Origin: a virus
Lineage: Duplodnaviria > Heunggongvirae > Uroviricota > Caudoviricetes
Length of the DNA: 21,913 bases
IMG/VR virus record: IMGVR_UViG_2675903253_000001
Strand: one strand, 5' to 3'
The notes beneath the pieces were generated by a model. It was not told where the DNA came from. It saw only the letters and a program-made list of their open reading frames with translations, and ran no database searches. How positions within the stretch are numbered: position 1 is the first letter of the stretch; each line of letters begins with the position of its first letter. Made by a program: the position numbers and the translations under genes. Of the stretch, positions 1,340 through 21,913 are shown piece after piece.

Positions 1340-1859
1340 ATGGAAGTCAACAAAAAGCAGCTGGCTGACATTTTCGGTGCGAGTATCCGTACCATTCAGA
1401 ACTGGCAGGAACAGGGAATGCCCGTTCTGCGAGGCGGTGGCAAGGGTAATGAGGTGCTTTATGACTCTGCCGCCGTTATAAGATGGTATGCCGAAAGGGA
1501 TGCTGAAATTGAGAACGAAAAGCTGCGCCGGGAAGTTGAAGAACTGCGGCAGGCCAGCGAGACAGATCTCCAGCCAGGGACTATTGAGTACGAACGCCAT
1601 CGACTTACGCGTGCGCAGGCCGACGCACAGGAGCTGAAAAATGCCAGAGACTCCGCTGAAGTGGTGGAAACCGCATTCTGTACTTTCGTGCTGTCGCGGA
1701 TCGCAGGTGAAATTGCCAGTATTCTCGACGGGATCCCCCTGTCGGTGCAGCGGCGTTTTCCGGAACTGGAAAACCGACATGTTGATTTCCTGAAACGGGA
1801 TATCATCAAAGCCATGAACAAAGCAGCCGCGCTGGATGAACTGATACCGGGGTTGCTGA

Positions 1860-1885
<26 letters not shown>
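1340..1885 (+). CDS. nu1: Terminase small subunit gpNu1 (181 aa)
   Basis: ORF 1340..1885. Protein MEVNKKQLADIFGASIRTIQNWQEQGMPVL... matches lambda Nu1 as I recall it, including the N-terminal winged helix-turn-helix. Immediately downstream of cosB and overlaps the A start, as in lambda. Confidence 0.95.
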
Positions 1886-5566
<3,681 letters not shown>

Positions 5567-5586
<20 letters not shown>

Positions 5587-6886
5587 TCTCCCGCATATTG
5601 CCAGCATGGCTTTTAATGAGCCGCTGATGCTTGAACCCGCCTATGCGCGGGTTTTCTTTTGTGCGCTTGCAGGCCAGCTTGGGATCAGCTGCCTGACGGA
5701 TGCAGTATCCGGCGACAGCCTGACTGCCGGAGAGGCACCCGCGGCGCTGGCGTTATCCGGTGATGATGACGGACCACGACAGGCCCGCAGTTATCAGGTA
5801 ATGAACGGCATCGCCGTGCTGCCGGTGTCCGGCACGCTGGTCAGCCGGACGCGGGCGCTGCAGCCGTACTCGGGGATGACCGGTTACAACGGCATTATCG
5901 CCCGTCTGCAACAGGCTGCCAGCGACCCGATGGTGGACGGCATTCTGCTCGATATGGACACACCGGGCGGAATGGTGGCGGGAGCATTTGACTGCGCTGA
6001 CATCATCGCCCGTGTGCGTGACATAAAGCCGGTATGGGCGCTGGCCAATGACATGAACTGCAGCGCAGGTCAGCTGCTTGCCAGTGCCGCCTCCCGGCGT
6101 CTGGTCACGCAGACCGCCCGGACAGGCTCCATCGGCGTCATGATGGCTCACAGTAATTACGGCGCTGCACTGGAGAAACAGGGCGTGGAAATCACGCTGA
6201 TTTACAGCGGCAGCCATAAGGTGGATGGCAACCCCTACAGCCATCTACCGGATGATGTCCGGGAAACATTGCAGTCCCGGATGGATGCAACCCGCCGGAT
6301 GTTTGCACAGAAGGTGTCGGCATATACCGGCCTGTCCGTGCAGGCTGTGCTGGATACCGAGGCTGCAGTGTACAGCGGTCAGGAGGCCATTGATGCCGGA
6401 CTGGCTGATGAACTTGTTAACAGTACCGATGCGATCACCGTCATGCGTGATGCACTGGATGCACGTAAATCCCGTCTCTCAGGAGGGCGAATGACCAAAG
6501 AGACTCAATCAACAACTGTTTCAGCCACTGCTTCGCAGGCTGACGTTACTGGCGTGGTGCAAGCGACGGAGGGCGAGAACGCCAGCGCGGCGCAGCCGGA
6601 CGTGAACGCGCAGATCACCGCAGCGGTTGCGGCAGAAAACAGTCGCATTATGGGGATCCTCAACTGTGAGGAGGCTCACGGACGCGAAGAACAGGCACGC
6701 GTGCTGGCCGAAACCCCCGGTATGACCGTGGAAACGGCCCGCCGTATTCTGGCCGCAGCACCACAGAGTGCACAGACGCGCAGTGACACTGCGCTGGATC
6801 GTCTGATGCAGGGGGCACCGGCACCGCTGGCTGCAGGTAACCCGGCATCTGATGCCGTTAACGATTTGCTGAACACACCAGTGTAA
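5567..6886 (+). CDS. C: Prohead protease/scaffold fusion gpC (439 aa), GTG start
   Basis: The six-frame ORF 5432..6886 is over-extended. The conserved lambda C N-terminus (V/M)TAELRNLPHIASMAFNEPLM begins at GTG 5567, preceded by gaggaggagaag (Shine-Dalgarno-like). Overlaps the end of B by 20 nt as in lambda. S49-type (ClpP/SppA-like) protease family by established knowledge. Confidence 0.9.
6281..6886 (+). CDS. nu3: Scaffolding protein gpNu3, in-frame internal start within C
   Basis: ATG at 6281 in the C reading frame (...SRMDATRRMFAQ...), sharing the C stop codon, at the position of the nested lambda Nu3 initiation. Established lambda biology; the internal start itself is not independently provable from sequence. 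Confidence 0.7.
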   Translation: MDATRRMFAQKVSAYTGLSVQAVLDTEAAVYSGQEAIDAGLADELVNSTDAITVMRDALDARKSRLSGGRMTKETQSTTVSATASQADVTGVVQATEGENASAAQPDVNAQITAAVAAENSRIMGILNCEEAHGREEQARVLAETPGMTVETARRILAAAPQSAQTRSDTALDRLMQGAPAPLAAGNPASDAVNDLLNTPV

Positions 6887-6895
6887 GGGATGTTT

Positions 6896-7228
6896 ATGAC
6901 GAGCAAAGAAACCTTTACCCATTACCAGCCGCTGGGCAATAGTGACCCGGCTCATACCGCAACCGCGCCCGGCGGATTGAGTGCGAAAGCGCCTGCAATG
7001 ACCCCGCTGATGCTGGACACCTCCACCCGTAAGCTGGTTGCGTGGGATGGCACCACCGACGGTGCTGCCGTTGGCATTCTTGCGGTTGCTGCTGACCAGA
7101 CCAGCACCACACTGACGTTCTACAAGTCCGGCACGTTCCGTTATGAGGATGTGCTCTGGCCGGAGGCTGCCAGCGACGAGACGAAAAAACGGACCGTGTT
7201 TGCCGGAACGGCAATCAGCATCGTTTAA
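6896..7228 (+). CDS. D: Head decoration protein gpD (110 aa)
   Basis: ORF 6890..7228. Lambda D begins [27 protein letters not shown], which corresponds to the second ATG at 6896. Sequence is near-identical to lambda D from memory. Confidence 0.92.
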
Positions 7229-7244
7229 CTTTACCCTTCATCAC

Positions 7245-7272
7245 TAAAGGCCGCCTGTGTGGCTTTTTTTAC
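7245..7272 (+). terminator. Stem-loop plus T-run in the D-E intergenic region (gccgc-ctgt-gtggc followed by ttttttt); candidate partial terminator or mRNA stability element within the late operon
   Basis: Inverted repeat at 7250-7263 followed by T7 at 7264-7270, 14 nt upstream of the E start. The lambda equivalent, as I recall it, is a perfect gccgc/gcggc stem; here one pair is a G-U wobble. Confidence 0.4.
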
Positions 7273-7283
7273 GGGATTTTTTT

Positions 7284-8309
7284 ATGTCGATGTACACAAC
7301 CGCCCAGCTGCTGGCGGCAAATGAGCAGAAATTTAAGTTTGATCCGCTGTTTCTGCGTCTCTTTTTCCGTGAGAGCTATCCCTTCACTACGGAGAAAGTC
7401 TATCTCTCACAAATTCCGGGACTGGTAAACATGGCGCTGTACGTTTCGCCGATTGTTTCCGGTGAGGTTATCCGTTCCCGTGGCGGCTCCACCTCTGAAT
7501 TTACGCCGGGATATGTCAAACCCAAGCATGAGGTGAATCCGCAGATGACCCTGCGTCGCCTGCCGGATGAAGATCCGCAGAATCTGGCGGACCCGGCTTA
7601 CCGCCGCCGTCGCATCATCATGCAGAACATGCGTGACGAAGAGCTGGCCATTGCTCAGGTCGAAGAGATGCAGGCAGTTTCTGCCGTGCTCAAGGGCAAA
7701 TACACCATGACCGGTGAAGCCTTCGATCCGGTTGAGGTGGATATGGGCCGCAGTGCGGCGAACAACATCACACAGTCCGGCGTCACGGAGTGGAGCAAGC
7801 GTGACAAGTCCACGTATGACCCGACCGACGATATCGAAGCCTACGCGCTGAACGCCAGCGGTGTGGTGAATATCATCGTGTTTGACCCGAAAGGCTGGGC
7901 GCTGTTCCGTTCCTTCAAAGCCGTCAAGGAGAAGCTGGATACCCGTCGCGGCTCTCATTCCGAGCTGGAGACAGCGGTAAAAGACCTGGGCAAAGCGGTG
8001 TCCTATAAGGGAATGTATGGCGATGTGGCCATCGTCGTGTATTCCGGACAGTACGTGGAAAACGGCGTCAAAAAGAACTTCCTGCCGGACAACACGATGG
8101 TGCTGGGGAACACTCAGGCTCGCGGTCTGCGCACCTATGGCTGCATTCAGGATGCGGACGCACAGCGCGAAGGCATTAACGCTTCTGCCCGTTACCCGAA
8201 AAACTGGGTGACCACCGGCGATCCGGCGCGTGAGTTCACCATGATTCAGTCAGCACCGCTGATGCTGCTGGCTGATCCTGATGAGTTCGTGTCCGTTCAA
8301 CTGGCGTAA
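7284..8309 (+). CDS. E: Major capsid protein gpE (341 aa)
   Basis: ORF 7257..8309 is over-extended. The conserved lambda E N-terminus MSMYTTAQLLAANEQKFKFDPLFLRLFF starts at ATG 7284. HK97-fold major capsid protein by established knowledge. Confidence 0.95.
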   Translation: MSMYTTAQLLAANEQKFKFDPLFLRLFFRESYPFTTEKVYLSQIPGLVNMALYVSPIVSGEVIRSRGGSTSEFTPGYVKPKHEVNPQMTLRRLPDEDPQNLADPAYRRRRIIMQNMRDEELAIAQVEEMQAVSAVLKGKYTMTGEAFDPVEVDMGRSAANNITQSGVTEWSKRDKSTYDPTDDIEAYALNASGVVNIIVFDPKGWALFRSFKAVKEKLDTRRGSHSELETAVKDLGKAVSYKGMYGDVAIVVYSGQYVENGVKKNFLPDNTMVLGNTQARGLRTYGCIQDADAQREGINASARYPKNWVTTGDPAREFTMIQSAPLMLLADPDEFVSVQLA

Positions 8310-8311
8310 TC

Positions 8312-8335
8312 ATGGCCCTTCGGGGCCATTTTCTC
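8312..8335 (+). terminator. Perfect 7-bp stem-loop with a UUCG tetraloop (atggccc-ttcg-gggccat) followed by tttt, in the E-FI intergenic region
   Basis: Read directly at 8312-8333, 3 nt after the E stop codon. The FI Shine-Dalgarno ggagg (8341-8345) and ATG (8351) follow. Confidence 0.45.
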
Positions 8336-8350
8336 TCTGTGGAGGAGTTC

Positions 8351-8749
8351 ATGACGAAAGATGAACTGATTGCCCGTCTTCAGGAGCTGGGTGAGCAATT
8401 GAACCGCGATGTCAGTTTGACGGGAACGAAAGAAGAACTGGCGCTTCGTGTGGCAGAGCTGGAAGAAGAGCTTGATGACACGGATGAAACTGCCGGTCAG
8501 GACACCCCTCTCAGCCGGGAAAATGTGCTGACCGGGCATGAAAATGAGGTGGTATCAGCGCAGCCGGATACCGTGATTCAGGATACGGCTGAACTGGTCA
8601 CGGTCGTGGCACTGGTGACGCTGCATACTGATGCACTTCACGCCACGCGGGATAAACCTGTGGCATTTGTGCTGCCGGGAACGGCGTTTCGTGTCTCTGC
8701 CGGTGTGGCAGCCGAAATGACAGAGCGCGGCCTGGCCAGAATGCAATAA
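8351..8749 (+). CDS. FI: DNA packaging/head assembly protein gpFI (132 aa)
   Basis: ORF 8312..8749 is over-extended. Lambda FI begins MTKDELIARL..., corresponding to ATG 8351 with a ggagg Shine-Dalgarno 5 nt upstream. Confidence 0.92.
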   Translation: MTKDELIARLQELGEQLNRDVSLTGTKEELALRVAELEEELDDTDETAGQDTPLSRENVLTGHENEVVSAQPDTVIQDTAELVTVVALVTLHTDALHATRDKPVAFVLPGTAFRVSAGVAAEMTERGLARMQ

Positions 8750-8760
8750 CGGGAGGCGCT

Positions 8761-9114
8761 GTGGCTGATTTCGATAACCTGTTCGATGCTGCCATTGCCC
8801 GCGCCGATGAAACGATACGCGGGTACATGGGAACGTCAGCCACCATGACATCCGGTGAGCAGTCAGGTGCGGTGATACGTGGTGTTTTTGATGACCCTGA
8901 AAATATCAGCTATGCCGGACAGGGCGTGCGCGTTGAAGGCTCCAGCCCGTCCCTGTTTGTCCGGACTGATGAGGTGCGGCAGCTGCGGCGTGGAGACACG
9001 CTGACCATCGGTGAGGAAAATTTCTGGGTAGATCGGGTTTCGCCGGATGATGGCGGAAGTTGTCATCTCTGGCTTGGACGGGGCGTACCGCCTGCCGTTA
9101 ACCGTCGCCGCTGA
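8761..9114 (+). CDS. FII: Head-tail connector protein gpFII (117 aa), apparent GTG start
   Basis: ORF 8761..9114. MADFDNLFDAAIARADETIRGYMGTSATMTSGEQSGAVIRGVF... matches lambda FII. First codon in the window is GTG. Confidence 0.92.
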   Translation: MADFDNLFDAAIARADETIRGYMGTSATMTSGEQSGAVIRGVFDDPENISYAGQGVRVEGSSPSLFVRTDEVRQLRRGDTLTIGEENFWVDRVSPDDGGSCHLWLGRGVPPAVNRRR

Positions 9115-9125
9115 AAGGGGGATGT

Positions 9126-9704
9126 ATGGCCATAAAAGGTCTTGAGCAGGCCGTTGAAAACCTCAGCCGTATCAGCAAAACGGCGGTGCCCGGTGCCGCC
9201 GCAATGGCCATTAACCGCGTTGCTTCATCCGCGATATCGCAGTCTGCGTCACAGGTTGCCCGTGAGACAAAGGTACGCCGGAAACTGGTAAAGGAAAGGG
9301 CCAGGCTGAAAAGGGCCACGGTCAAAAATCCGCAGGCCAGAATCAAAGTTAACCGGGGGGATTTGCCCGTAATCAAGCTGGGTAATGCGCGGGTTGTCCT
9401 GTCCCGCCGCAGGCGTCATAAAAAGGGGCAGCGTTCATCCCTGAAAGGTGGCGGCAGCGTGCTTGTGGTGGGTAACCGTCGTATTCCCGGCGCGTTTATT
9501 CAGCAACTGAAAAACGGCCGGTGGCATGTTATGCAGCGTGTGGCCGGGAAAAACCGTTACCCCATTGATGTGGTGAAAATCCCGATGGCGGTGCCGCTGA
9601 CCACGGCGTTTAAACAGAATATTGAACGGATACGGCGTGAACGTCTTCCGAAAGAGCTGGGCTATGCGCTGCAGCATCAACTGAGAATGGTAATAAAGCG
9701 ATGA
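9126..9704 (+). CDS. Z: Tail completion protein gpZ (192 aa)
   Basis: ORF 9126..9704. MAIKGLEQAVENLSRISKTAVPGAAAMAINRVASSAISQ... matches lambda Z in position and length. Confidence 0.93.
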   Translation: MAIKGLEQAVENLSRISKTAVPGAAAMAINRVASSAISQSASQVARETKVRRKLVKERARLKRATVKNPQARIKVNRGDLPVIKLGNARVVLSRRRRHKKGQRSSLKGGGSVLVVGNRRIPGAFIQQLKNGRWHVMQRVAGKNRYPIDVVKIPMAVPLTTAFKQNIERIRRERLPKELGYALQHQLRMVIKR

Positions 9705-10096
9705 AACATACTGAACTCCGTGCAGCCGTACTGGATGCACTGGAGAAGCATGACACCGGGGCGACGCTTTTTGATGGTCGCCCCGCTGTTTTTGATGAGG
9801 AAGATTTTCCGGCAATTGCCGTTTATCTCACCGGCGCTGAATACACGGGCGAAGAGCTGGACAGCGATACCTGGCAGGCGGAGCTGCATATTGAAGTTTT
9901 CCTGCCTGCTCAGGTGCCGGATTCAGAGCTGGATTCGTGGATGGAGTCCCGGATTTATCCTGTGATGAGCGATATCCCGGCACTGTCAGATTTGATCACC
10001 AGTATGGTGGCCAGCGGCTATGACTACCGGCGCGACGATGATGCGGGCCTGTGGAGTTCAGCCGATCTGACTTATGTCATTATCTATGAAATGTGA
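9701..10096 (+). CDS. U: Tail terminator protein gpU (131 aa)
   Basis: ORF 9701..10096. [43 protein letters not shown]... matches lambda U. Start ATGA overlaps the Z stop. Confidence 0.93.
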
Positions 10097-10103
10097 GGAC
10101 GCT

Positions 10104-10844
10104 ATGCCTGTACCAAATCCTACAATGCCGGTGAAAGGTGCCGGGACCACCCTGTGGGTTTATAAGGGGAGCGGTGACCCTTATGCGAACCCGCTTTCAG
10201 ACGTTGACTGGTCGCGTCTGGCAAAAGTTAAAGACCTGACGCCCGGCGAACTGACCGCTGAGTCCTATGACGACAGCTATCTCGATGATGAAGATGCAGA
10301 CTGGACTGCGACCGGGCAGGGGCAGAAATCTGCCGGAGATACCAGCTTCACGCTGGCGTGGATGCCCGGAGAGCAGGGGCAGCAGGCGCTGCTGGCGTGG
10401 TTTAATGAAGGTGATACCCGTGCCTATAAAATCCGCTTCCCGAACGGCACGGTCGATGTGTTCCGTGGCTGGGTCAGCAGTATCGGTAAGGCGGTGACGG
10501 CGAAGGAGGTGATTACCCGCACGGTGAAGGTCACCAATGTGGGACGTCCGTCGATGGCAGAAGATCGCAGCACGGTGACGGCGACGACCGGCATGACGGT
10601 GACACCCGCCAGTGCTTCCGTAGTGAAAGGGCAGAGCACCACGCTGACCGTGGCATTCCAGCCGGATGGCGCAACCGACAAGAGCTTCCGTGCGGTGTCT
10701 GCGGATAAAACAAAAGCCACCGTGTCGGTCAGTGGTATGACCATCACCGTGAAAGGTGTTGCTGCAGGCAAGGTCAACATTCCGGTCGTATCTGGTAATG
10801 GTGAGTTTGCTGCGGTTGCAGAAATCAACGTCACCGCCAGTTAA
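10104..10844 (+). CDS. V: Major tail tube protein gpV (246 aa) with C-terminal Ig-like (Big_2-type) domain
   Basis: ORF 10074..10844 is over-extended. Lambda V begins [22 protein letters not shown] at ATG 10104, with a ggag-like motif upstream. The C-terminal ~90 aa ([29 protein letters not shown]...) is the known dispensable Ig-like domain. Confidence 0.94.
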
Positions 10845-10859
10845 TCCGGAGAGTCAGCG

Positions 10860-11282
10860 ATGTTCCTGAAAACCGAATCATTTGAACATAACGGTGTGAC
10901 CGTCACGCTTTCTGAACTGTCAGCCCTGCAGCGTATTGAGCATCTCGACCTGATGAAACGGCAGGCAGAACAGGCGGAGTCAGACAGCAACCGGAAGTTT
11001 ACTGTGGAAGACGCCATCAGAACCGGCGCTTTTGTGGTTGCGATGTCCCTGTGGCATAACCATCCGAAGAAGACGCAGATGCCGTCCATGAATGAAGCCG
11101 TTAAACAGATTGAGCAGGAAGTGCTTACCACCTGGCCCACAGAGGCAATTTCTCATGCTGAAAACGTGGTGTACCGGCTGTCCGGTATGTATGAGTTTGT
11201 GGTGAATGATGCTCCTGAACAGGCAGAGGACGCCGGGCCTGCAGAGCCTGTTTCTGCGGGAAAGTGTTCGACGGTGAGCTGA
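10860..11282 (+). CDS. G: Tail assembly chaperone gpG (140 aa)
   Basis: ORF 10860..11282. MFLKTESFEHNGVTVTLSELSALQRIEHLDLMKRQAEQ... matches lambda G. Confidence 0.93.
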   Translation: MFLKTESFEHNGVTVTLSELSALQRIEHLDLMKRQAEQAESDSNRKFTVEDAIRTGAFVVAMSLWHNHPKKTQMPSMNEAVKQIEQEVLTTWPTEAISHAENVVYRLSGMYEFVVNDAPEQAEDAGPAEPVSAGKCSTVS

Positions 11283-11698
11283 GTTTTGCCCTGAAACTGG
11301 CGCGTGAGATGGGGCGACCCGACTGGCGCGCCATGCTTGCCGGGATGTCATCCACGGAGTATGCCGACTGGCACCGCTTTTACAGTACCCATTATTTTCA
11401 TGATGTTCTGCTGGATATGCACTTTTCCGGGCTGACGTACACCGTGCTCAGCCTGTTTTTCAGCGATCCGGAGATGCATCCGCTGGATTTCAGTCTGCTG
11501 AACCGGCGCGAGGCTGACGAAGAGCCTGAAGATGATGTGCTGATGCAGAAAGCGGCAGGGCTTGCCGGAGGTGTCCGCTTTGGCCCGGACGGGAATGAAG
11601 TTATCCCCGCTTCCCCGGATGTGGCGGACATGACGGAGGATGACGTAATGCTGATGACAGTATCAGAAGGGATCGCAGGAGGAGTCCGGTATGGCTGA
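10860..11698 (+). CDS. T: Tail assembly protein gpGT, produced by programmed -1 ribosomal frameshift at slippery heptamer G GGA AAG (11258-11264) joining G to the T frame
   Basis: GGGAAAG heptamer is present at 11258-11264, in the G frame as GGA AAG. The -1 frame ORF 11264..11698 (VFDGELSFALKLAREMGRPDWRAMLAGMSSTEYADWHRF...) matches the lambda T region and has no credible independent start or Shine-Dalgarno. Established lambda biology. Confidence 0.85.
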
Positions 11699-14252
11699 AC
11701 CGGTAGGCGATCTGGTCGTTGATTTGAGTCTGGATGCGGCCAGATTTGACGAGCAGATGGCCAGAGTCAGGCGTCATTTTTCCGGTACGGAAAGTGATGC
11801 GAAAAAAACAGCGGCAGTCGTTGAACAGTCGCTGAGCCGACAGGCGCTGGCTGCACAGAAAGCGGGGATTTCCGTCGGGCAGTATAAAGCCGCCATGCGT
11901 ATGCTGCCTGCACAGTTCACCGACGTGGCCACGCAGCTTGCAGGGGGGCAGAATCCCTGGCTGATCCTGCTGCAACAGGGTGGTCAGGTTAAGGACTCCT
12001 TCGGCGGGATGATCCCCATGTTCAGGGGGCTTGCCGGCGCGATCACCCTGCCGATGGTGGGGGCCACCTCGCTGGCGGTGGCGACCGGTGCGCTGGCGTA
12101 TGCCTGGTATCAGGGCAACTCAACCCTGTCCGATTTCAACAAAACGCTGGTCCTTTCCGGTAATCAGGCGGGACTGACGGCAGATCGTATGCTGGTCCTG
12201 TCCAGAGCCGGGCAGGCGGCAGGGCTGACGTTTAACCAGACCAGCGAGTCACTCAGCGCACTGGTTAAGGCGGGGGTAAGCGGTGAGGCTCAGATTGCGT
12301 CCATCAGCCAGAGTGTGGCGCGTTTCTCCTATGCATCCGGCGTGGAGGTGGACAAGGTCGCTGAAGCCTTCGGGAAGCTGACCACAGACCCGACGTCGGG
12401 GCTGACGGCGATGGCACGCCAGTTCCATAACGTGACGGCGGAGCAGATTGCGTATGTTGCTCAGTTGCAGCGTTCCGGCGATGAAGCCGGGGCATTGCAG
12501 GCGGCGAACGAGGCCGCAACGAAAGGGTTTGATGACCAGACCCGCCGCCTGAAAGAGAACATGGGCACGCTGGAGACCTGGGCAGACAGGACTGCACGTG
12601 CATTCAAATCCATGTGGGATGCGGTGCTGGATATTGGTCGTCCTGATACCGCGCAGGAGATGCTGATTAAGGCAGAGGCTGCGTTTAAGAAAGCAGACGA
12701 CATCTGGAATCTGCGCAAGGATGATTATTTCGTTAACGATGAAGCACGGGCGCGTTACTGGGATGATCGTGAAAAAAAACGCCTGGAGCGGGATGCAGCC
12801 CAAAAGAGGGTAGATCAACAGCGTCAACAGGACAAAAATGCGCAGCAGCAGAGCGATACCGAAGCGTCACGGCTGAAATATACCGAAGAGGCGCAGAAGG
12901 CTTACGAACGGCTGCAGACGCCGCTGGAGAAATATACCGCCCGTCAGGAAGAACTGAACAAGGCACTGAAAGACGGAAAAATCCTGCAGGCAGATTACAA
13001 CACGCTGATGGCGGCGGCGAAAAAGGATTATGAAGCGACGCTGAAAAAGCCGAAACAGTCCGGCGTGAAGGTGTATGCGGGCGATCGTCAGGAAGACAGT
13101 GCTCATGCGGCCCTGCTGACGCTTCAGGCAGAACTCCGGACGCTGGAGAAGCATGCCGGAGCGAATGAGAAAATCAGCCAGCAGCGCCGGGATTTGTGGA
13201 AGGCAGAAAGTCAGTTCGCGGTACTGGAGGAGGCGGCACAACGTCGCCAGCTGTCCGCACAGGAGAAATCCCTGCTGGCGCATAAAGACGAGACGCTGGA
13301 GTACAAACGCCAGCTGGCTGCACTTGGTGACAAGGTTACGTATCAGGAGCACCTGAATGCGCTGGCGCAGCAGGCGGATAAATTCGCACAGCAGCAACGG
13401 GCAAAACGGGCAGCCATTGATGCGAAAAACCGGGGGCTGACTGACCGGCAGGCAGCGCGGGAAGCCACGGAACAGCGCCTGAAGGAACAGTATGGCGATA
13501 ATCCTCTGGCGCTGAATAACGTCATGTCAGAGCAGAAAAAGACCTGGGCGGCTGAAGACCAGCTTCGCGGGAGCTGGATGGCAGGCCTGAAGTCCGGCTG
13601 GAGTGAGTGGGAAGAGAGCGCCACGGACAGTATGTCACAGGTTAAAAGTGCAGCCACGCAGACCTTTGATGGTATTGCACAGAATATGGCGGCGATGCTG
13701 ACCGGCAGTGAACAGAACTGGCGCAGCTTCACCCGCTCCGTGCTGTCCATGATGACAGAAATTCTGCTTAAGCAGGCAATGGTGGGGATTGTCGGGAGTA
13801 TCGGCAGCGCCATTGGCGGGGCTGTTGGTGGCGGCGCATCCGCGTCAGGTGGTACAGCCATTCAGGCCGCTGCGGTGAAATTCCATTTTGCAACCGGGGG
13901 ATTTACGGGAACCGGCGGCAAATATGAGCCAGCGGGGATTGTTCACCGTGGTGAATTTGTCTTCACGAAGGAGGCAACCAGCCGGATTGGCGTGGGGAAT
14001 CTCTACCGGCTGATGCGCGGCTATGCGGAAGGTGGTTATGTGGGCGGTGCCGGAAGTCCGGCGCAGATGCGGCGGGCTGAAGGCATTAATTTTAATCAGA
14101 ACAATCACGTGGTGATTCAGAACGACGGTACGAATGGTCTGCCAGGTCCACAGATGATGAAGGCCGTGTATGACATGGCCCGCAAGGGTGCCCGTGATGA
14201 AATTCAGACACAGATGCGTGATGGTGGCCTGTTCTCCGGAGGTGGACGATGA
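11691..14252 (+). CDS. H: Tail tape measure protein gpH (853 aa)
   Basis: ORF 11691..14252, 853 aa as in lambda. Long Ala/Gln/Lys-rich predicted helical protein. Position between G-T and M. Confidence 0.95.
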   Translation: MAEPVGDLVVDLSLDAARFDEQMARVRRHFSGTESDAKKTAAVVEQSLSRQALAAQKAGISVGQYKAAMRMLPAQFTDVATQLAGGQNPWLILLQQGGQVKDSFGGMIPMFRGLAGAITLPMVGATSLAVATGALAYAWYQGNSTLSDFNKTLVLSGNQAGLTADRMLVLSRAGQAAGLTFNQTSESLSALVKAGVSGEAQIASISQSVARFSYASGVEVDKVAEAFGKLTTDPTSGLTAMARQFHNVTAEQIAYVAQLQRSGDEAGALQAANEAATKGFDDQTRRLKENMGTLETWADRTARAFKSMWDAVLDIGRPDTAQEMLIKAEAAFKKADDIWNLRKDDYFVNDEARARYWDDREKKRLERDAAQKRVDQQRQQDKNAQQQSDTEASRLKYTEEAQKAYERLQTPLEKYTARQEELNKALKDGKILQADYNTLMAAAKKDYEATLKKPKQSGVKVYAGDRQEDSAHAALLTLQAELRTLEKHAGANEKISQQRRDLWKAESQFAVLEEAAQRRQLSAQEKSLLAHKDETLEYKRQLAALGDKVTYQEHLNALAQQADKFAQQQRAKRAAIDAKNRGLTDRQAAREATEQRLKEQYGDNPLALNNVMSEQKKTWAAEDQLRGSWMAGLKSGWSEWEESATDSMSQVKSAATQTFDGIAQNMAAMLTGSEQNWRSFTRSVLSMMTEILLKQAMVGIVGSIGSAIGGAVGGGASASGGTAIQAAAVKFHFATGGFTGTGGKYEPAGIVHRGEFVFTKEATSRIGVGNLYRLMRGYAEGGYVGGAGSPAQMRRAEGINFNQNNHVVIQNDGTNGLPGPQMMKAVYDMARKGARDEIQTQMRDGGLFSGGGR

Positions 14253-14578
14253 AAACCTTCCGCTGGAAAGTGAAACCCGGTATGGATGTGGCTTCGGCCC
14301 CTTCTGTAAGAAAGGTGCGCTTTGGTGATGGCTATTCCCAGCGAGCGCCTGCCGGGCTGAATGCCAACCTGAAAACGTACAGCGTGACGCTTTCTGTCCC
14401 CCGTGAGGAGGCCATGGTACTGGAGTCGTTTCTGGAAGAGCACGGGGGCTGGAAAGCCTTTCTGTGGACGCCGCCTTATGAGTGGCGGCAGATAAAGGTG
14501 ACCTGCGCAAAATGGTCGTCGCGGGTCAGTATGCTGCGTGTTGAGTTCAGCGCAGAGTTTGAACAGGTGGTGAACTGA
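14249..14578 (+). CDS. M: Tail tip assembly protein gpM (109 aa)
   Basis: ORF 14249..14578. MKTFRWKVKPGMDVASAPSVRKVRFGDGYSQ... matches lambda M. Start overlaps the H stop. Confidence 0.93.
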   Translation: MKTFRWKVKPGMDVASAPSVRKVRFGDGYSQRAPAGLNANLKTYSVTLSVPREEAMVLESFLEEHGGWKAFLWTPPYEWRQIKVTCAKWSSRVSMLRVEFSAEFEQVVN

Positions 14579-15276
14579 TGCAGGATATCCGGCAGGAAAC
14601 ACTGAATGAATGCACCCGTGCGGAGCAGTCGGCCAGCGTGGTGCTCTGGGAAATCGATCTGACAGAGGTCGGTGGAGAACGTTATTTTTTCTGTAATGAG
14701 CAGAACGAAAAAGGTGAGCCGGTCACCTGGCAGGGGCGACAGTATCAGCCGTATCCCATTCAGGGGAGTGGTTTTGAACTGAATGGCAAAGGCACCAGTA
14801 CGCGCCCCACGCTGATGGTTTCTAACCTGTACGGTATGGTCACCGGGATGGCGGAAGATCTACAGAGTCTGGTCGGCGGAACGGTGGTCCGGCGTAAGGT
14901 TTACGCCCGTTTTCTGGATGCGGTGAACTTCGTCAACGGAAACAGTGACGCCGATCCGGAGCAGGAGGTGATCAGCCGCTGGCGCATTGAGCAGTGCAGC
15001 GAACTGAGCGCGGTGAGTGCCTCTTTTGTACTGTCCACGCCGACGGAAACAGATGGCGCTGTTTTTCCGGGACGTATCATGCTGGCCAACACCTGCACCT
15101 GGACCTATCGCGGCGATGAGTGCGGTTATCACGGTCCGGCGGTCGCGGATGAATATGACCAGCCAACGTCCGACATCACGAAGGATAAATGCAGCAAATG
15201 CCTGAGTGGCTGTAAGTTTCGCAATAACGTCGGCAACTTTGGCGGCTTCCTTTCCATTAACAAACTTTCGCAGTAA
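14578..15276 (+). CDS. L: Tail tip protein gpL (232 aa), cysteine-rich C-terminus
   Basis: ORF 14578..15276 with start overlapping the M stop (TGATG). C-terminal cysteines (CTWTYRGDECGYHG...CSKCLSGCKF) are consistent with the Fe-S cluster reported for gpL. Confidence 0.93.
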   Translation: MQDIRQETLNECTRAEQSASVVLWEIDLTEVGGERYFFCNEQNEKGEPVTWQGRQYQPYPIQGSGFELNGKGTSTRPTLMVSNLYGMVTGMAEDLQSLVGGTVVRRKVYARFLDAVNFVNGNSDADPEQEVISRWRIEQCSELSAVSASFVLSTPTETDGAVFPGRIMLANTCTWTYRGDECGYHGPAVADEYDQPTSDITKDKCSKCLSGCKFRNNVGNFGGFLSINKLSQ

Positions 15277-15281
15277 ATCCC

Positions 15282-16025
15282 ATGACAGAGACAGAATCAG
15301 CGATTCTGGCGCACGCCCGGCGATGTGCTCCAGCGGAGTCGTGCGGCTTCGTGGTAAGAACGCCGGAGGGGGAAAGATATTTCCCCTGCGTGAATATCTC
15401 CGGTGAGCCGGAGGCGTATTTCCGTATGTCGCCGGAAGACTGGCTGCAGGCAGAGATGCAGGGGGAGATTGTGGCACTGGTCCACAGCCACCCCGGTGGT
15501 CTGCCCTGGCTGAGTGAGGCCGACCGGCGGCTGCAGGTGCAGAGTGATTTGCCGTGGTGGCTGGTCTGCCGGGGGGCGATTCACAAGTTCCGCTGTGTGC
15601 CACATCTTACCGGGCGGCGCTTTGAGCACGGGGTGACGGACTGTTACACGCTGTTCCGGGATGCTTACCATCTGGCGGGGATTGAGATGCCGGATTTTCA
15701 TCGTGAGGATGACTGGTGGCGTCACGGTCAGAATCTCTATCTGGATAATCTGGAGGCCACAGGGCTGTATCAGGTGCCGTTGTCAGCGGCGCAGCCGGGC
15801 GATGTGCTGCTGTGCTGTTTTGGTTCATCGGTGCCGAATCATGCCGCCATTTACTGTGGTGACGGCGAGCTGCTGCACCATATTCCTGAACAACTGAGCA
15901 AACGAGAGAGGTATACCGACAAATGGCAGCGACGCACACACTCCCTCTGGCGTCACCGGGCATGGCACGCATCTGCCTTTACGGGGATTTGCAACGATTT
16001 GGCCGCCGCATCGACCTTCGTGTGA
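15282..16025 (+). CDS. K: Tail tip assembly protein gpK (247 aa) with JAB/MPN (JAMM motif HSHPGG) and NlpC/P60-like domains
   Basis: ORF 15282..16025. The JAMM-type motif ...EIVALVHSHPGG... is visible in the N-terminal half. Position between L and I. Confidence 0.92.
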   Translation: MTETESAILAHARRCAPAESCGFVVRTPEGERYFPCVNISGEPEAYFRMSPEDWLQAEMQGEIVALVHSHPGGLPWLSEADRRLQVQSDLPWWLVCRGAIHKFRCVPHLTGRRFEHGVTDCYTLFRDAYHLAGIEMPDFHREDDWWRHGQNLYLDNLEATGLYQVPLSAAQPGDVLLCCFGSSVPNHAAIYCGDGELLHHIPEQLSKRERYTDKWQRRTHSLWRHRAWHASAFTGICNDLAAASTFV

Positions 16026-16594
16026 AAACGGGTGCCGAAGCCATCCGGGCGATGGCCACACAGCTCCCTGCGTTTCGTCAGAAGCTGAGCGACGGCTGGT
16101 ATCAGGTGCGTATTGCCGGGCAGGATGTTAGCACGTCCGGATTAACGGCACAGTTACATGAGGCTCTGCCTGACGGCGCTGTGATTCATATTGTTCCCAG
16201 AGTCGCCGGGGCCAAGTCAGGTGGTGTATTCCAGATTGTCCTGGGAGCAGCCGCCATTGCCGGATCATTCTTTACCGCCGGAGCCACCCTTGCAGCATGG
16301 GGGGCTGCCATTGGTGCCGGTGGTATGACCGGCATTCTGTTTTCTCTCGGTGCCAGTATGGTGCTCGGCGGTGTGGCTCAGATGCTGGCACCGAAAGCCA
16401 GAACTCCCCGCACACAGACAACGGATAACGGTAAGCAGAACACCTATTTCTCCTCACTGGATAACATGGTTGCCCAGGGCAATGTTATGCCTGTTCTGTA
16501 TGGTGAAATGCGCGTGGGGTCACGTGTGGTATCTCAGGAGATCAGCACGGCAGACGAAGGGGACGGTGGTCAGGTTGTGGTGATTGGTCGCTGA
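15923..16594 (+). CDS. I: Tail tip assembly protein gpI (223 aa)
   Basis: ORF 15923..16594. MAATHTLPLASPGMARICLYGDLQRFGRRIDLRVKTG... matches lambda I. Overlaps the 3' end of K in another frame, as in lambda. Confidence 0.92.
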   Translation: MAATHTLPLASPGMARICLYGDLQRFGRRIDLRVKTGAEAIRAMATQLPAFRQKLSDGWYQVRIAGQDVSTSGLTAQLHEALPDGAVIHIVPRVAGAKSGGVFQIVLGAAAIAGSFFTAGATLAAWGAAIGAGGMTGILFSLGASMVLGGVAQMLAPKARTPRTQTTDNGKQNTYFSSLDNMVAQGNVMPVLYGEMRVGSRVVSQEISTADEGDGGQVVVIGR

Positions 16595-16654
16595 TGCAAA
16601 ATGTTTTATGTGAAATCGCCTCCGGGCGGTTTTATCGTTTATGGAGCATGACGA

Positions 16655-19600
16655 ATGGGTAAAGGCAGCAGTAAGGGGCATACCCCGCGCGAAGCGAAGG
16701 ACAACCTGAAGTCCACGCAGCTGCTGAGTGTGATCGATGCCATCAGNGAAGGGCCGGTTGAAGGTCCGGTGGATGGATTAAAAAGCGTGCTGCTGAACAG
16801 TACGCCGGTGCTGGACAGTGAGGGGAATACCAACATCTCCGGCGTCACGGTGGTGTTCCGGGCAGGTGAGCAGGAGCAGTCACCGCCGGAGGGATTTGAA
16901 TCCTCCGGCTCCGAGACGGTGCTGGGTACGGAAGTGAAATATGACACGCCGATCACCCGGACCATCACGTCGGCAAACATTGACCGACTGCGTTTTACCT
17001 TCGGTGTACAGGCACTGGTGGAAACCACCTCAAAGGGAGACAGGAATCCGTCTGAAGTTCGCCTGCTGGTTCAGATACAGCGTAACGGTGGCTGGGTGAC
17101 GGAAAAAGACATCACCATTAAGGGCAAAACCACCTCGCAGTATCTGGCCTCGGTGGTGGTGGATAACCTGCCGCCGCGCCCGTTTAATATCCGGATGCGC
17201 AGAATGACGCCGGACAGCACCACAGACCAGCTGCAGAACAAAACGCTCTGGTCGTCATACACCGAAATCATCGATGTGAAACAGTGCTACCCGAACACTG
17301 CACTGGTCGGCGTACAGGTGGACTCGGAGCAGTTCGGCAGCCAGCAGGTGAGTCGTAATTATCATCTTCGCGGGCGCATTCTGCAGGTGCCGTCGAACTA
17401 TAATCCGCAGACGCGGCAATACAGCGGTATCTGGGACGGAACGTTAAAACCGGCATACAGCAACAACATGGCCTGGTGTCTGTGGGATATGCTGACCCAT
17501 CCGCGCTATGGCATGGGGAAACGTCTTGGTGCGGCAGATGTGGATAAATGGGCGCTGTATGTCATCGGCCAGTACTGTGACCAGTCGGTGCCGGACGGCT
17601 TTGGCAGCACGGAGCCGCGCATCACCTGTAATGCCTGGCTGACCACACAGCGCAAGGCGTGGGATGTGCTCAGTGATTTCTGCTCGGCGATGCGCTGTAT
17701 GCCGGTATGGAACGGGCAGACGCTGACGTTCGTGCAGGACCGACAGTCGGATAAGGTGTGGGCCTATAACCGCAGTAATGTGGTGATGCCGGATGATGGC
17801 GCGCCGTTCCGCTACAGTTTCAGCGCCCTGAAAGACCGCCATAATGCCGTTGAGGTGAACTGGATTGACCCGGATAACGGCTGGGAGACGGCGACAGAGC
17901 TTGTGGAGGATACGCAGGCCATTGTCCGTTACGGTCGTAACGTCACGAAGATGGATGCCTTTGGCTGTACCAGCCGGGGGCAGGCACACCGCGCCGGGCT
18001 GTGGCTGATTAAAACGGAACTGCTGGAGACGCAGACCGTGGATTTCAGCGTGGGTGCTGAAGGGCTTCGTCATGTACCGGGCGATGTCATTGAAATCTGC
18101 GATGATGACTATGCCGGTATCCGCACCGGCGGGCGCGTGCTGGCGGTGAACAGCCAGACCCGGACGCTGACGCTCGACCGTGAAATCACGCTGCCATCCT
18201 CCGGCACCACGCTGATAAGCCTGGTTGACGGGCAGGGGAATCCGGTCAGCGTGGAGGTCCAGTCCGTCACCGACGGCGTGAAGGTAAAAGTGAGCCGTGT
18301 TCCTGACGGTGTTGCTGAATACAGCGTGTGGGGGCTGAAGCTGCCGACGCTGCACCAGCGATTGTTCCGCTGCGTGAGTATCCGTGAGAACGACGACGGC
18401 ACGTATGCCATCACCGCCGTGCAGCATGTGCCGGAAAAAGAAGCCATCGTGGATAACGGGGCGCACTTTGACGGCGACCAGAGCGGCACGGTGAATGGTG
18501 TCACGCCGCCAGCGGTGCAGCACCTGACTGCCGAAGTCACCGCAGACAGCGGGGAATATCAGGTGCTGGCGCGCTGGGACACGCCGAAGGTGGTGAAGGG
18601 CGTGAGCTTCCTGCTCCGTCTGACCGTAACAGCGGATGACGGCAGTGAGCGGCTGGTCAGCACGGCCCGGACGACGGAAACCACNTGGGAGACGGCGACA
18701 GAGCTTGTGGAGGATACGCAGGCCATTGCCCGTTACGGTCGTAACGTCACGAAGATGGATGCTTTTGGCTGTACCAGCCGGGGGCAGGCACACCGCGCCG
18801 GGCTGTGGCTGATTAAAACAGAACTGCTGGAAACGCAGACCGTGGACTTCAGCGTGGGCGCAGAAGGGCTTCGCCATGTGCCGGGCGATGTCATTGAAAT
18901 CTGTGATGATGACTATGCGGGTATCAGCATCGGCGGGCGCGTGCTGGCGGTAAACAGCCAGACCCGGACGCTGACGCTCGACCGTGAAATCACGCTGCCA
19001 TCCTCCGGTACCATGCTGATAAGCCTGGTTGACGGAAGTGGCAATCCGGTCAGCGTGGAGGTTCAGTCCGTCACCGACGGCGTGAAGGTGAAAGTGAGCC
19101 GTGTTCCTGNNNNNNNNNNNNNNNNNNNNNNNNNNNNNNNNNNNNNNNNNNNNNNNNNNNNNNNNNNNNNNNNNNNNNNNNNNNNNNNNNNNNNNNNNNN
19201 NNNNNNNNNNNNNNNNNNNNNNNNNNNNNNNNNNNNNNNNNNNNNNNNNNNNNNNNNNNNNNNNNNNNNNNNNNNNNNNNNNNNNNNNNNNNNNNNNNNN
19301 NNNNNNNNNNNNNNNNNNNNNNNNNNNNNNNNNNNNNNNNNNNNNNNNNNNNNNNNNNNNNNNNNNNNNNNNNNNNNNNNNNNNNNNNNNNNNNNNNNNN
19401 NNNNNNNNNNNNNNNNNNNNNNNNNNNNNNNNNNNNNNNNNNNNNNNNNNNNNNNNNNNNNNNNNNNNNNNNNNNNNNNNNNNNNNNNNNNNGAAATCAC
19501 GCTGCCATCCTCCGGTACCATGCTGATAAGCCTGGTTGACGGAAGTGGCAATCCGGTCAGCGTGGAGGTTCAGTCCGTCACCGACGGCGTGAAGGTGAAA

Positions 19601-21463
19601 GTGAGCCGTGTTCCTGACGGCGTTGCTGAATACAGCGTGTGGGGGCTGAAGCTGCCGACGTTGCGCCAGCGCCTGTTCCGCTGTGTGAGTATCCGTGAGA
19701 ACGATGACGGCACGTATGCCATCACTGCCGTGCAGCATGTACCGGAAAAAGAAGCCATCGTGGATAACGGGGCGCACTTTGACGGCGACCAGAGCGGCAC
19801 GGTGAATGGTGTCACGCCGCCAGCGGTGCAGCACCTGACTGCCGAAGTCACCGCAGACAGCGGGGAATATCAGGTGCTGGCGCGCTGGGACACGCCGAAG
19901 GTGGTGAAGGGGGTGAGCTTTATGCTTCGCCTGACCGTGGCAGCGGATGACGGCAGTGAGCGGCTGGTCAGCACGGCCCGGACGACGGAAACCACATACC
20001 GCTTCACGCAACTGGCGCTGGGACGGTACACGCTGACAGTCCGGGCGGTAAATGCCTGGGGACAGCAGGGCGATCCGGCGTCGGTATCGTTCCGGATTGC
20101 CGCACCGGCAGCGCTGTCGCGGATTGAGCTGACGCCGGGCTATTTTCAGATAACCGCCACGCCGCATCTTGCGGTTTATGATCCGACGGTACAGTTTGAG
20201 TTCTGGTTCTCGGAAAAGCGGATTGCGGATATCAGGCAGGTTGAAACCACAGCACGCTATCTTGGCACGGCGCTGTACTGGATAGCCGCCAGTATCAATA
20301 TCAAACCGGGCCATGATTATTACTTTTATATCCGCAGTGTGAACACCGTTGGCAAATCGGCATTCGTGGAGGCTGTTGGTCAGCCGAGTGATGATGCATC
20401 CGGTTATCTGGATTTTTTCAAAGGCGAGATAGGGAAAACCCATCTGGCTCAGGAGCTGTGGACGCAGATTGATAACGGTCAGCTTGCGCCTGACCTGGCT
20501 GAAATCAGGACGTCCATTACGGATGTCAGCAATGAAATCACGCAGACCGTCAATAAGAAACTGGAAGACCAGAGTGCGGCAATTCAGCAGATACAGAAGG
20601 TTCAGGTTGATACAAATAATAACCTGAACAGCATGTGGGCTGTGAAGCTGCAGCAGATGCAGGACGGACGCCTTTATATCGCGGGTATTGGTGCCGGTAT
20701 TGAGAACACCCCTGACGGCATGCAGAGTCAGGTGCTGCTGGCGGCGGACAGGATTGCGATGGTTAATCCTGCGAATGGCAACACAAAACCGATGTTTGTT
20801 GGTCAGGGCGATCAGATATTCATGAACGACGTGTTCCTGAAACGCCTGACGGCCCCCACCATTACCAGCGGTGGAAATCCATCGGCATTTTCCCTGACTC
20901 CGGACGGAAAGCTGACCGCTAAAAATGCGGATATCAGTGGCAGTGTGAATGCGAACGCCGGGACGCTCAACAATGTCACGGTAAATGAAAACTGTACGAT
21001 TAAGGGCATGCTGGAGGCGACTCAGGTCAGAGGTGACTTCGTTAAAGCTGTATCCAAATCATTTCCGAAACAGGCTGGTACGTGGGGTAACACGGAAACA
21101 CCAAACGGGACGGTTACAGTCACCATAAGCGATGATCATAACTTTGACCGCCAGATTATTATTCCGCCCATTATTTTTAACGGTATAGCGTATGACGATC
21201 CGGGGAGCGGAAATAACCCAGGAGGCACGCGATACACGGGTTATGGTTTTGAAGTTCGCAAAAACGGCGTATTAATCGCATCCAGAGAAACTAAAGGTGC
21301 CATTCCCGGTAGTTACAGTGCAGTTATTGATATGCCTAGTGGTGGTGGTAGCGTCACTCTGGAGTTTAAGATTTTCCAGAAAGGCAATCAGGGGGCAGGC
21401 AATATCACCGACTGTACGGTGATTGTGACCAAAAAAGCGGCTTCCGGCATCAGTATTCGTTGA
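16655..21463 (+). CDS. J: Central tail fiber/host specificity protein gpJ; the apparent 1602-codon ORF includes an in-frame duplicated segment and a 383-N gap, so the true length is uncertain
   Basis: ORF 16655..21463 starts [30 protein letters not shown], the lambda J N-terminus. Most of the body matches lambda J. Internal tandem repeat and N-run are listed separately. The C-terminal ~350 aa diverge from my recollection of lambda J. Ambiguous bases at 16747 and 18685. Confidence 0.85.
17882..19616 (+). repeat. In-frame tandem duplication within J: copy 1 at 17882-18685, copy 2 starting at 18686 (period 804 bp = 268 codons), interrupted by the N-gap; 19493-19616 is identical to 18986-19109
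   Basis: Direct comparison of sequence: tgggagacggcgacagagcttgtggaggatacgcaggcc... recurs at 17882 and 18686, and gaaatcacgctgccatcctccgg... at 18182, 18986 and 19493. The copies differ at scattered SNPs (for example [46 protein letters not shown]). The junction base at 18685 is n. Confidence 0.8.
19110..19492. other. Assembly gap (383 consecutive N) inside J
   Basis: Run of n from 19110 to 19492. The 124 bp on each side (18986-19109 and 19493-19616) are identical, typical of an unresolved repeat or scaffold join. Confidence 0.95.
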
Positions 21464-21485
21464 AATATTTATAACCCCAATAAAT

Positions 21486-21512
21486 GGCGTCAGGAATGAC
21501 GCCTTTTTTATT
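21486..21512 (+). terminator. Candidate Rho-independent terminator downstream of J (ggcgtca-ggaa-tgacgcc followed by ttttttatt)
   Basis: Perfect 7-bp inverted repeat at 21486-21503 with a 4-nt loop and a T-run at 21504-21512, 23 nt after the J stop codon. Confidence 0.65.
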
Positions 21513-21533
21513 GCAGAAAAGCGAGAGGTAATT

Positions 21534-21913
21534 ATGCGTAAAGTTTGTGCAGCCATTTTGTCCGCAGCCATTTGCCTGGCCGTATCCGGTGCGCCTGCAT
21601 GGGCGTCTGAACATCAGTCCACGCTGAGCGCGGGGTATCTTCATGCCCGGACCAACGTTCCCGGCAGTGATGATCTGAACGGGATTAACGTGAAATACCG
21701 TTATGAGTTTACGGATACGCTGGGGCTGGTGACGTCATTCAGCTATGCAGGAGACAAGAATCGCCAGCTGACCCGTTACAGCGATACCCGCTGGCATGAA
21801 GATTCCGTGCGTAACCGCTGGTTCAGCGTGATGGCGGGGCCGTCTGTGCGCGTGAATGAATGGTTCAGCGCGTATGCGATGGCGGGTGTGGCTTACAGCC
21901 GTGTGTCGACTTT
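21534..21913 (+). CDS. lom: Lom-family (Ail/Lom/OmpX-like) outer membrane protein, 5' portion; runs off the window end
   Basis: ATG at 21534 preceded by gagaggt. Translation MRKVCAAILSAAICLAVSGAPAWA|SEHQSTLSAGYLHARTNVPGSDDLNGINVKYRYEFTDTLGLVTSFSYAG... has a signal peptide with AxA cleavage motif and alternating beta-strand pattern. GINVKYRYE, VMAGP and SAYAMAGVA(Y/H)SR are shared with lambda Lom as I recall it. Position immediately after J is as in lambda. Not in the ORF track because no stop codon lies within the window. Confidence 0.85.
   Translation, partial: MRKVCAAILSAAICLAVSGAPAWASEHQSTLSAGYLHARTNVPGSDDLNGINVKYRYEFTDTLGLVTSFSYAGDKNRQLTRYSDTRWHEDSVRNRWFSVMAGPSVRVNEWFSAYAMAGVAYSRVST

Follow-up and report, generated by a model that had tools for sequence, protein, structure and literature searches.

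An in-frame 804-nt repeat in the tail-tip gene J of a draft Shigella prophage is very probably an artefact of scaffolding and gap filling

False duplications in genome assemblies typically lie next to gaps, and in the "heterotype" form a scaffold carries the same locus twice in succession, as two diverged versions (Ko et al., 2022, Genome Biol 23:205, PMC9516828). SSPACE and GapFiller work greedily and can produce false joins (PMC5320598). GapFiller extends sequences by 30-mers, stops at ambiguous allelic bases, at which it takes a majority vote, and accepts a fill only when its length is consistent with the gap estimate (PMC3446322). In this study, we analyzed a window of 21,913 nt, which is the complete draft record CXFG01000074.1 of the assembly GCA_001250555.1 and belongs to a lambda-like Shigella prophage. 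The center of its J gene is repeated in frame, and the repeat resembles the heterotype cases in that two diverged versions of a locus stand in tandem on a scaffold. Unlike those cases, which concern the haplotypes of diploids, the versions here would be paralogous prophage alleles in a haploid bacterium. That a residual N run is flanked by the same sequence left and right agrees with the rules of SSPACE and GapFiller (PMC5320598, PMC3446322), and an extension that halts at an allelic site, together with an allele switch in a shared stretch of 30 nt, agrees with those of GapFiller (PMC3446322). From this signature, we infer a link between these two programs and CXFG01000074.1.

The features of the window are listed in Table 1. 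The first-pass annotation had described two 804-nt copies in register, 383 Ns in the second copy, an exact repeat of the 124 bp before these Ns, and an n at the junction between the copies, and the coordinates of all these elements were confirmed. When the junction base is included, copy 1 spans 17882–18685, and copy 2 consists of 18686–19109, the 383 Ns, and 19493–19996. Position 17882 is the first base of a J codon. A repeat finder applied to the window returned spacings of 804, 507, and 1311 nt; the register offset between copy 1 and the sequence from 18686 onward is 804, and that between copy 1 and the sequence after the gap is 1311. Because 804 nt correspond to 268 codons and 507 nt (383 + 124) to 169 codons, the reading frame is kept throughout J. 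The window contains three non-ACGT stretches, i.e., the 383 Ns and single Ns at 18685 and 16747, and the last of these, although it also lies within J, was absent from the first-pass annotation. In the public record, J is broken into gene calls of 818 aa and 656 aa, and a protein look-up of the 1602-aa scaffold ORF returned no entry.

Table 1. Coordinates of the features in and around J in the window; A and B are the two J alleles distinguished in the text.
Feature	Position	Strand	Remark
J (tip attachment / host specificity)	16655..21463	+	Scaffold ORF of 1602 codons, some of them with N
Second single N inside J	16747	.	Replaces exactly one base; allele A = C, NCTC9082 = T
Three NCTC9082-like bases in the otherwise A-type left part	17299, 17323, 17353	+	
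Copy 1 (allele A)	17882..18684	+	Read as the prophage's own J segment, aa 410–677
Single N at the junction of the copies	18685	.	Allele A = T, allele B = A at this site; ...GGAAACCAC[N]TGGGAGACGG...
Copy 2, first piece (allele B)	18686..19109	+	J unit positions 1–424
Left copy of the 124-nt repeat	18986..19109	+	Identical to 19493–19616
383-N run	19110..19492	.	Read as a spurious positive gap; flanking pieces would really overlap by 124 nt
Allele B continued	19493..20062	+	19493–19616 = repeated flank; unit end 19996; B haplotype to 20062
30-nt stretch identical in A and B	20063..20092	+	Scaffold switches from B to A within it
Allele A again	20093..21913	+	C-terminal part of J, to record end; 20063–21913 100% identical to L002
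Partial lom-like gene at record end	21534..21913		

The closed genome CP104423.1 contains the same prophage (L002), and positions 1691–18684 of the window were 99.965% identical to positions 1–16994 of L002, without a single mismatch inside 17882–18684. Copy 1 follows 17 kb of prophage sequence without a break and was 100% identical to L002 and to the drafts L003 and L004, in all of which J is single-copy. In CP104423.1, J has 1165 aa, which is exactly 1602 − 268 − 169, and the exact 1165-aa protein was found on at least 1000 contigs, named Shigella sonnei or Shigella. Between 20093 and 20452, the window had the A base at all 32 discriminating sites. The N at 16747 and the three non-A bases further downstream (17299, 17323, and 17353) all fall on allele-discriminating sites, and these three bases lie within 17168–17418, an interval that is a 250-N gap in CWWG01000057.1, another draft of the same prophage.

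Domains and structure were examined in L002, whose A-type J has the same sequence as the window except at the artefact. All Pfam matches were above the cut-offs, and PDB 8iyk chain J was matched with E = 0 over residues 1–836. Like lambda gpJ (PDB 8iyk), the collapsed J is full-length and has six domains in the same order (FNIII-A_GpJ, Phage-tail_3, Ig_J, Ig_J_second, Phage_Tail_Tip, and Ig_GpJ_C), and this architecture, with the homology to the solved protein, places it with gpJ. It differs from lambda gpJ in length (1165 versus 1132 aa) and in its C-terminal receptor-binding part, which is a different allele. As written in the scaffold, J repeats aa 410–677, and no solved or finished J shows such a repeat. 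The unit starts in the middle of Phage-tail_3 (330–498) and stops in the middle of Ig_J (610–714), so both breakpoints lie inside folded domains.

Between the two copies, 40 of 804 nt (95.0% identity) and 8 of 268 aa differ, which is more than the "handful of SNPs" of the first-pass annotation; the copies are therefore two alleles, A and B. Without the gap and one of the 124-nt flanks, copy 2 is exactly 804 nt long. This collapsed sequence, together with the next 66 nt, matched without a mismatch the J of L024, an IMG/VR contig that is free of Ns and has J as a single copy, and collapsed copy 2 aligned to Escherichia coli NCTC9082 in one contiguous alignment with 99.9% identity. The first piece (18686–19109) was 100% identical to L024 and 99.8% identical to NCTC9082, but only 94.8% identical to allele A. 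The B haplotype extends 66 nt beyond the duplicated unit, to 20062, and 19493–20062 has the B-like base at each of the 35 sites by which A can be told from NCTC9082. Each copy is thus a distinct allele that is single-copy elsewhere (A in L002–L004; B in L024 and NCTC9082), and the 100% identity of each to a different single-copy J supports the first-pass proposal that J alleles of paralogous lambdoid prophages were mixed in assembly. In a search for homologous proteins with the B fragment, exact B was not among the matches listed, which consisted solely of incomplete J proteins from contigs of ∼1 kb and representatives of 90% clusters. These partial proteins suggest that the center of J assembles poorly, and in drafts it is commonly a stand-alone contig of ∼1 kb. 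Both alleles are present in two other draft assemblies, and a B-like J adjoining sitABCD was found on 19 contigs named S. sonnei; allele B presumably lies at another locus of the same genome. A B-like J remnant beside the sit operon (P0002 / L007) was considered as the donor and rejected, because its DNA was only 95–96% identical to the B of the window.

A single N is the mark of an unresolved overlap in scaffolding and gap-filling tools of this kind. The N at 18685 occupies a site at which A and B differ, and the assembled sequence is thus interrupted at the junction. One molecule with a defined junction sequence is therefore lacking, and the copies are separated by an unknown base, with 383 further Ns inside copy 2. 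The joint shows no microhomology (ACCAC before the N, TGGGAG after it). A 100-nt junction probe was not covered to at least 80% at any of 13,463 J places, drawn from 4,484 complete E. coli genomes, or in any of 132 phage records, and exact-pattern scans of GTDB species representatives and IMG/VR did not find the exact junction. Accordingly, the junction was not reproduced in finished genomes or independent assemblies, and the related CP104423.1, L003, and L004 have one copy each. Fifteen metagenome matches to the exact junction 22-mer provide no evidence for the junction, because BLAST and inspection of the flanks placed all of them in one unrelated conserved gene. To explain why a contig boundary lies at 17882, we considered a K'-'J deletion remnant in CP024661.1, in which J homology starts 3 nt from the start of the unit; as this is a single genome, it stays a lead.

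Comparable chains were found in other drafts. In the IMG/VR contigs L023/L026 and L027/L028, segments 100% identical to allele A and 99.9% identical to allele B are chained across single Ns, and in other drafts with the same alleles the coordinates of the pseudo-junctions differ from those in the window. In L031, allele A is chained to a different prophage of ∼78% identity, and in one of the chained contigs an N is followed by the identical contig start, TGGGAGACGGCGACAG, but has another left partner. In IMG/VR contigs with both alleles, B is followed by a different J 3' end of its own. The preference of the first-pass annotation for an artefact is also borne out by these chains of the same two alleles across single Ns elsewhere, by the N at an allele-discriminating site, and by the absence of the junction from the finished genomes searched.

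As judged from these sequence comparisons, the duplication is very probably false, i.e., it arose when a short-read draft was scaffolded and its gaps were filled and does not exist in the DNA, and the true gene is most likely an ordinary single-copy J of 1165 aa. The particular software behavior behind the scaffold may be pictured as follows. The genome, a Shigella of the sonnei type, would carry at least two lambdoid J alleles. The contig of allele A would extend without interruption from the head genes and end at 18684, one base before a site at which A and B differ. Pieces of allele B, which would normally lie in another prophage, would then be linked behind A by read pairs; with 95% identity between the alleles, such links are to be expected. 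In J coordinates, the start of the first B piece would lie 804 nt upstream, and since the overlap of this piece with A is not exact, the two would be left unmerged with a single N between them. The two B pieces would overlap by 124 nt and likewise stay unmerged, with 383 Ns between them, which would match the documented outcome when the extensions of a gap filler meet but the filled and estimated gap lengths disagree. Finally, the path would return from B to A inside the 30-nt stretch common to both alleles. In principle, the 383-N run could hide sequence instead of being a gap estimate (18686 + 804 = 19490, which is 3 nt before the end of the run), and even if it were a mask over real sequence, the verdict would stay the same.

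A genuine in-frame tandem duplication, in which illegitimate or unequal exchange between prophage J alleles added a second 268-codon central segment, would give a tail-tip protein of ∼1433 aa in which partial hub and Ig modules are added, and the 383-N gap would be the only flaw in the assembly. Lambdoid J is highly mosaic and present at a median of 2 and a maximum of 12 places per E. coli genome, so recombination between prophages is plausible; furthermore, the unit is exactly 268 codons long and begins at a codon boundary, and the chance that both offsets (804 and 507 nt) would be in frame is ∼1 in 9 if the joins were arbitrary, which counts against an artefact. However, nothing that was sequenced spans 18685, the joint lacks microhomology and is missing from all finished genomes and phages searched, and each copy is fully identical to a separate single-copy allele. 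The breakpoints would also cut Phage-tail_3 and Ig_J of a trimeric hub protein, other pseudo-junctions occur in assemblies with the same two alleles, and the same prophage has the 1165-aa J on at least 1000 contigs. A real duplication is therefore very hard to credit. It is, by the same token, extremely improbable that the scaffold order represents a real molecule, namely a Shigella lambdoid prophage J with an in-frame 268-residue hub-to-Ig repeat composed of two alleles; if it did, illegitimate recombination between prophages would have produced an extended tail tip.

We also consider it unlikely that the duplication is artefactual but the true J is a natural A-B-A mosaic, with copy 1 as a misplaced piece from another locus and a gene-conversion tract from a second prophage over roughly 17882–20062. 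The piece from 19493 to 21913 does run continuously from allele B into allele A, a small B-like patch is present at 17299–17353, and E. coli J alleles are mosaic: for the 401-nt stretch across the switch (window 19900–20300), the best match in complete E. coli genomes was 99.0% identical. However, copy 1 is physically joined to the 17 kb of prophage sequence and identical to the standard Shigella allele, and the exact B-to-A switch was found neither in complete E. coli genomes nor in IMG/VR, which was searched with a 76-mer across it. The switch lies in a shared stretch whose 30 nt match the k-mer length that a common gap filler uses by default, so that an artefactual allele switch would be expected exactly here, and in other IMG/VR drafts allele B continues into its own J 3' end. 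For a left A-then-B hybrid 122-mer, the sole IMG/VR match, L031, was rejected as a natural mosaic, because it is an A-type variant that shares a single SNP and sits on another N-chained contig.

With scaffolding and gap filling as the preferred origin of the repeat, the finding has no biological significance of its own, as J here is of the ordinary lambda type. The case is a warning about data quality, because the chaining of prophage alleles across single Ns also occurs in IMG/VR viral contigs, so tail-fiber length variants, "novel" J architectures, and host-range predictions mined from drafts can be artefacts. Such cases may be screened for simply, by looking for an N between near-identical segments in register or for identical sequence flanking an N run.

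The open reading frame of J and the ambiguous stretches of the window are summarized in the table below. The region 17882–18685 (copy 1) is in register with 18686 onward at an offset of 804 nt, the sequence after the long N run is in register with copy 1 at an offset of 1311, and 18986–19109 is repeated exactly at 19493–19616. A codon starts at 17882, and the 804 nt correspond to 268 codons; the gap plus the repeated flank (383 + 124 = 507 nt) correspond to 169 codons. When the gap and one 124-nt flank are removed from copy 2 (18686–19996), exactly 804 nt remain. The coordinates, register, and codon counts thus agree with the first-pass annotation of an in-frame 268-codon near-repeat in J with 124 nt repeated across an N gap, and a single N was located at the junction base, as had been reported. 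However, the two copies had been said to differ at a handful of SNPs, and the actual differences are more numerous (40 of 804 nt and 8 of 268 aa).

Positions of the J reading frame and of all non-ACGT stretches in the window
Feature	Position	Extent
J ORF as written	16655–21463	1602 codons
Non-ACGT stretch	16747	single N
Non-ACGT stretch	18685	single N
Non-ACGT stretch	19110–19492	383 N

The post-gap J fragment (19493–21463) is recorded on one contig only, CXFG01000074.1 (GCA_001250555.1; 21,913 nt), and the stored sequence of this contig is the window, so that the window amounts to one complete draft record. The tape measure protein encoded in it is named Shigella sonnei or MULTISPECIES Shigella on at least 1000 contigs, and its genes form a standard lambda late operon (Nu1, A, W, B, C, D, E, FI, FII, Z, U, V, G/T, H, M, L, K, I, J, and lom). 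The lom-like (Ail/Lom) gene at 21534–21913 is cut by the end of the record. The prophage sequence at both ends of this 21.9-kb scaffold carries on in closed genomes, indicating that the scaffold is bounded by repeats common to several prophages. The slippery heptamer GGGAAAG occurs at 11258–11264, where the G-like (10860–11282) and T-like (11264–11698) ORFs overlap; this is the classical, already known lambda G/GT programmed −1 frameshift site.

A gap-free alignment of window 1691–18684 with this prophage as found in the closed genome CP104423.1 had 99.965% identity, and none of the six differences lay within 17882–18684. In CP104423.1 and in a draft (L004), J is a single ORF of 1165 aa, which matches 1602 − 268 − 169 = 1165; exactly this protein, named host specificity protein J [Shigella sonnei], occurs on 1000 or more contigs, of which the longest measures 5.03 Mb. 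Judging from these alignments, copy 1 appears to be the prophage's own J segment, here called allele A. For copy 2, identity to CP104423.1 was only 94.8% before the gap (18686–19109); after it (19493–21913), there were 35 differing sites, all within 19516–20062, with 20063–21913 identical. Collapsed copy 2 aligned in one contiguous piece, at 99.9% identity, with J of E. coli NCTC9082, which is single-copy. Extended by the following 66 nt, it had 0 mismatches to L024, an IMG/VR contig free of N whose J is likewise single-copy. A three-way comparison showed that the window has the NCTC9082-like base at 35 of 35 discriminating sites in 19516–20062 and the allele A base at 32 of 32 in 20093–20452; beyond 20093, the true B alleles (L024, L029, and NCTC9082) take a different course from the window. 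The B-like J genes are located in a prophage adjoining sitABCD, and one such protein beside sitABCD is named S. sonnei/Escherichia on 19 contigs. Copy 2 is a different natural allele, here called allele B. Because 18686 + 804 = 19490 falls 3 nt short of the end of the N run, this run could hide the end of the B piece and a further join instead of being a pure size estimate, and the artefact verdict is unchanged either way.

The junction itself was searched for elsewhere. A 600-nt junction query against complete E. coli genomes matched, among the top-listed ones, only as two permuted pieces that together span 803 nt, the signature of a single-copy J. With presence defined as coverage of 80% or more of a 100-nt probe, the junction occurred at 0 of 13,463 places in 4,484 complete E. 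coli genomes, and none of 132 phage records had it. In finished phages, a 2455-nt query left a footprint of 2030 nt, again indicating a single copy. Exact junction scans gave no match in the GTDB representatives or in IMG/VR. Fifteen metagenome contigs (L008–L022) with the 22-mer ACGGAAACCACTTGGGAGACGG were rejected as carrying a conserved gene unrelated to J; the flanks of the 22-mer are conserved among them and have no similarity to J.

A single N in a scaffold may mark an unresolved overlap. At 18685, allele A has T, allele B has A, and the scaffold has N, after which the B piece starts; no assembled base crosses this junction, and no microhomology was found there. The N at 16747 stands for exactly one base without an indel (C in allele A, T in NCTC9082) and looks like an allelic base left unresolved by mixed reads. 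Apart from it, the left part departs from allele A only at 17299, 17323, and 17353, all NCTC9082-like. A natural conversion patch could explain these three SNPs; they lie within 17168–17418, a 250-N gap in a draft of the same prophage (CWWG01000057.1), which suggests instead a gap filled with reads of another J allele. In that draft, N runs of exactly 250 at 15478–15727, at 20406–20655, and from 22321 onward suggest a fixed or conventional gap size, and as the window has 383 N, the pipelines may not be identical. The return from B to A lies within 20063–20092, 30 nt identical in both alleles. A 76-mer spanning this switch was not found in IMG/VR, and a 401-nt stretch over it (19900–20300) was matched in complete E. 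coli genomes at 99.0% at best, never exactly. We consider it quite probable that allele A truly occupies the window prophage, with less certainty than attaches to the artefact itself; the alternative is a natural A-B-A mosaic.

Similar structures were found in other drafts. In UViG_2700989365_000006 (L023/L026) and UViG_2693429679_000007 (L027/L028), segments with 100% identity to allele A alternate with segments 99.9% identical to allele B; they are chained with single Ns between them and overlap in J coordinates. The order is A-B-A-other or B-A, and the resulting pseudo-duplications measure about 0.7, 1.1, and 1.2 kb. The identical contig start TGGGAGACGGCGACAG also comes after an N in L026, but the left partner there is another part of J, so that 17882 is a recurrent contig end and no biological joint. 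In UViG_2693429733_000004 (L031), allele A is likewise chained to a different, roughly 78% identical prophage. The N-chained alleles in these isolate-derived IMG/VR "viral genomes" span J plus the L/K tail genes. The hits of a search with the B-fragment protein were mostly incomplete J proteins from contigs of 0.8–1.6 kb, and some of these counted hundreds to thousands of members; the center of J therefore routinely drops out as a repeat contig. CASDMC010000056.1 (L006; 2783 nt), with several repeated J fragments of different alleles and a 431-aa protein (P0001) bearing both allele signatures and two Ig_J hits, is another misassembled J. At a Rac-like locus adjoining ynaE-uspF-ompN-ydbK in CP024661.1 (L030, 8001–9383), K' and 'J are naturally fused by a deletion; the fusion (P0016, 460 aa) is cut 3′ after ...ALYWI. 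Its J homology sets in at window 17885, 3 nt away from where the duplicated unit begins, and contig starts at 17882 could be explained if the source genome had a comparable remnant.

The duplicated unit (aa 410–677) starts in the middle of Phage-tail_3 (330–498), ends two-thirds into Ig_J (610–714), and lies within the portion of J covered by the alignment with the lambda gpJ structure (8iyk, residues 1–836, E = 0). This portion makes up the trimeric tail-tip hub; if the repeat were real, a truncated Ig domain would be fused to half a hub domain. Both offsets preserve the reading frame, for which the chance is about 1 in 9, and this is a caveat to the artefact reading. That reading, already favored in the first-pass annotation as mixed J alleles in one scaffold, is supported by the separate single-copy alleles, the N junction, its absence from finished genomes, and the differing joints in other drafts. 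False duplications in drafts typically lie beside gaps and arise from diverged locus versions not recognized as the same (PMC9516828). SSPACE and GapFiller, run on those reads that had not yet been mapped as proper pairs, are described as greedy and able to make false joins (PMC5320598). GapFiller lengthens gap edges one base at a time using 30-mers that overlap by 29 nt, settles allelic positions by majority rule, and closes a gap only when the extensions overlap and the fill is within 50 nt of the estimated gap (PMC3446322). Under such rules, extension would halt one base short of an A/B difference (end at 18684), one base would stay unresolved at an allelic site (N at 16747), two extensions could overrun each other by 124 nt while still separated by N, and the allele could switch within a shared 30-nt stretch. 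We infer that scaffolding and gap filling probably produced the false duplication. Taken together, the comparisons support the view that the J duplication is not a real feature and that the real gene is most likely an ordinary single-copy lambda-type J, and they warn that N-chained prophage alleles occur in public drafts and in IMG/VR.
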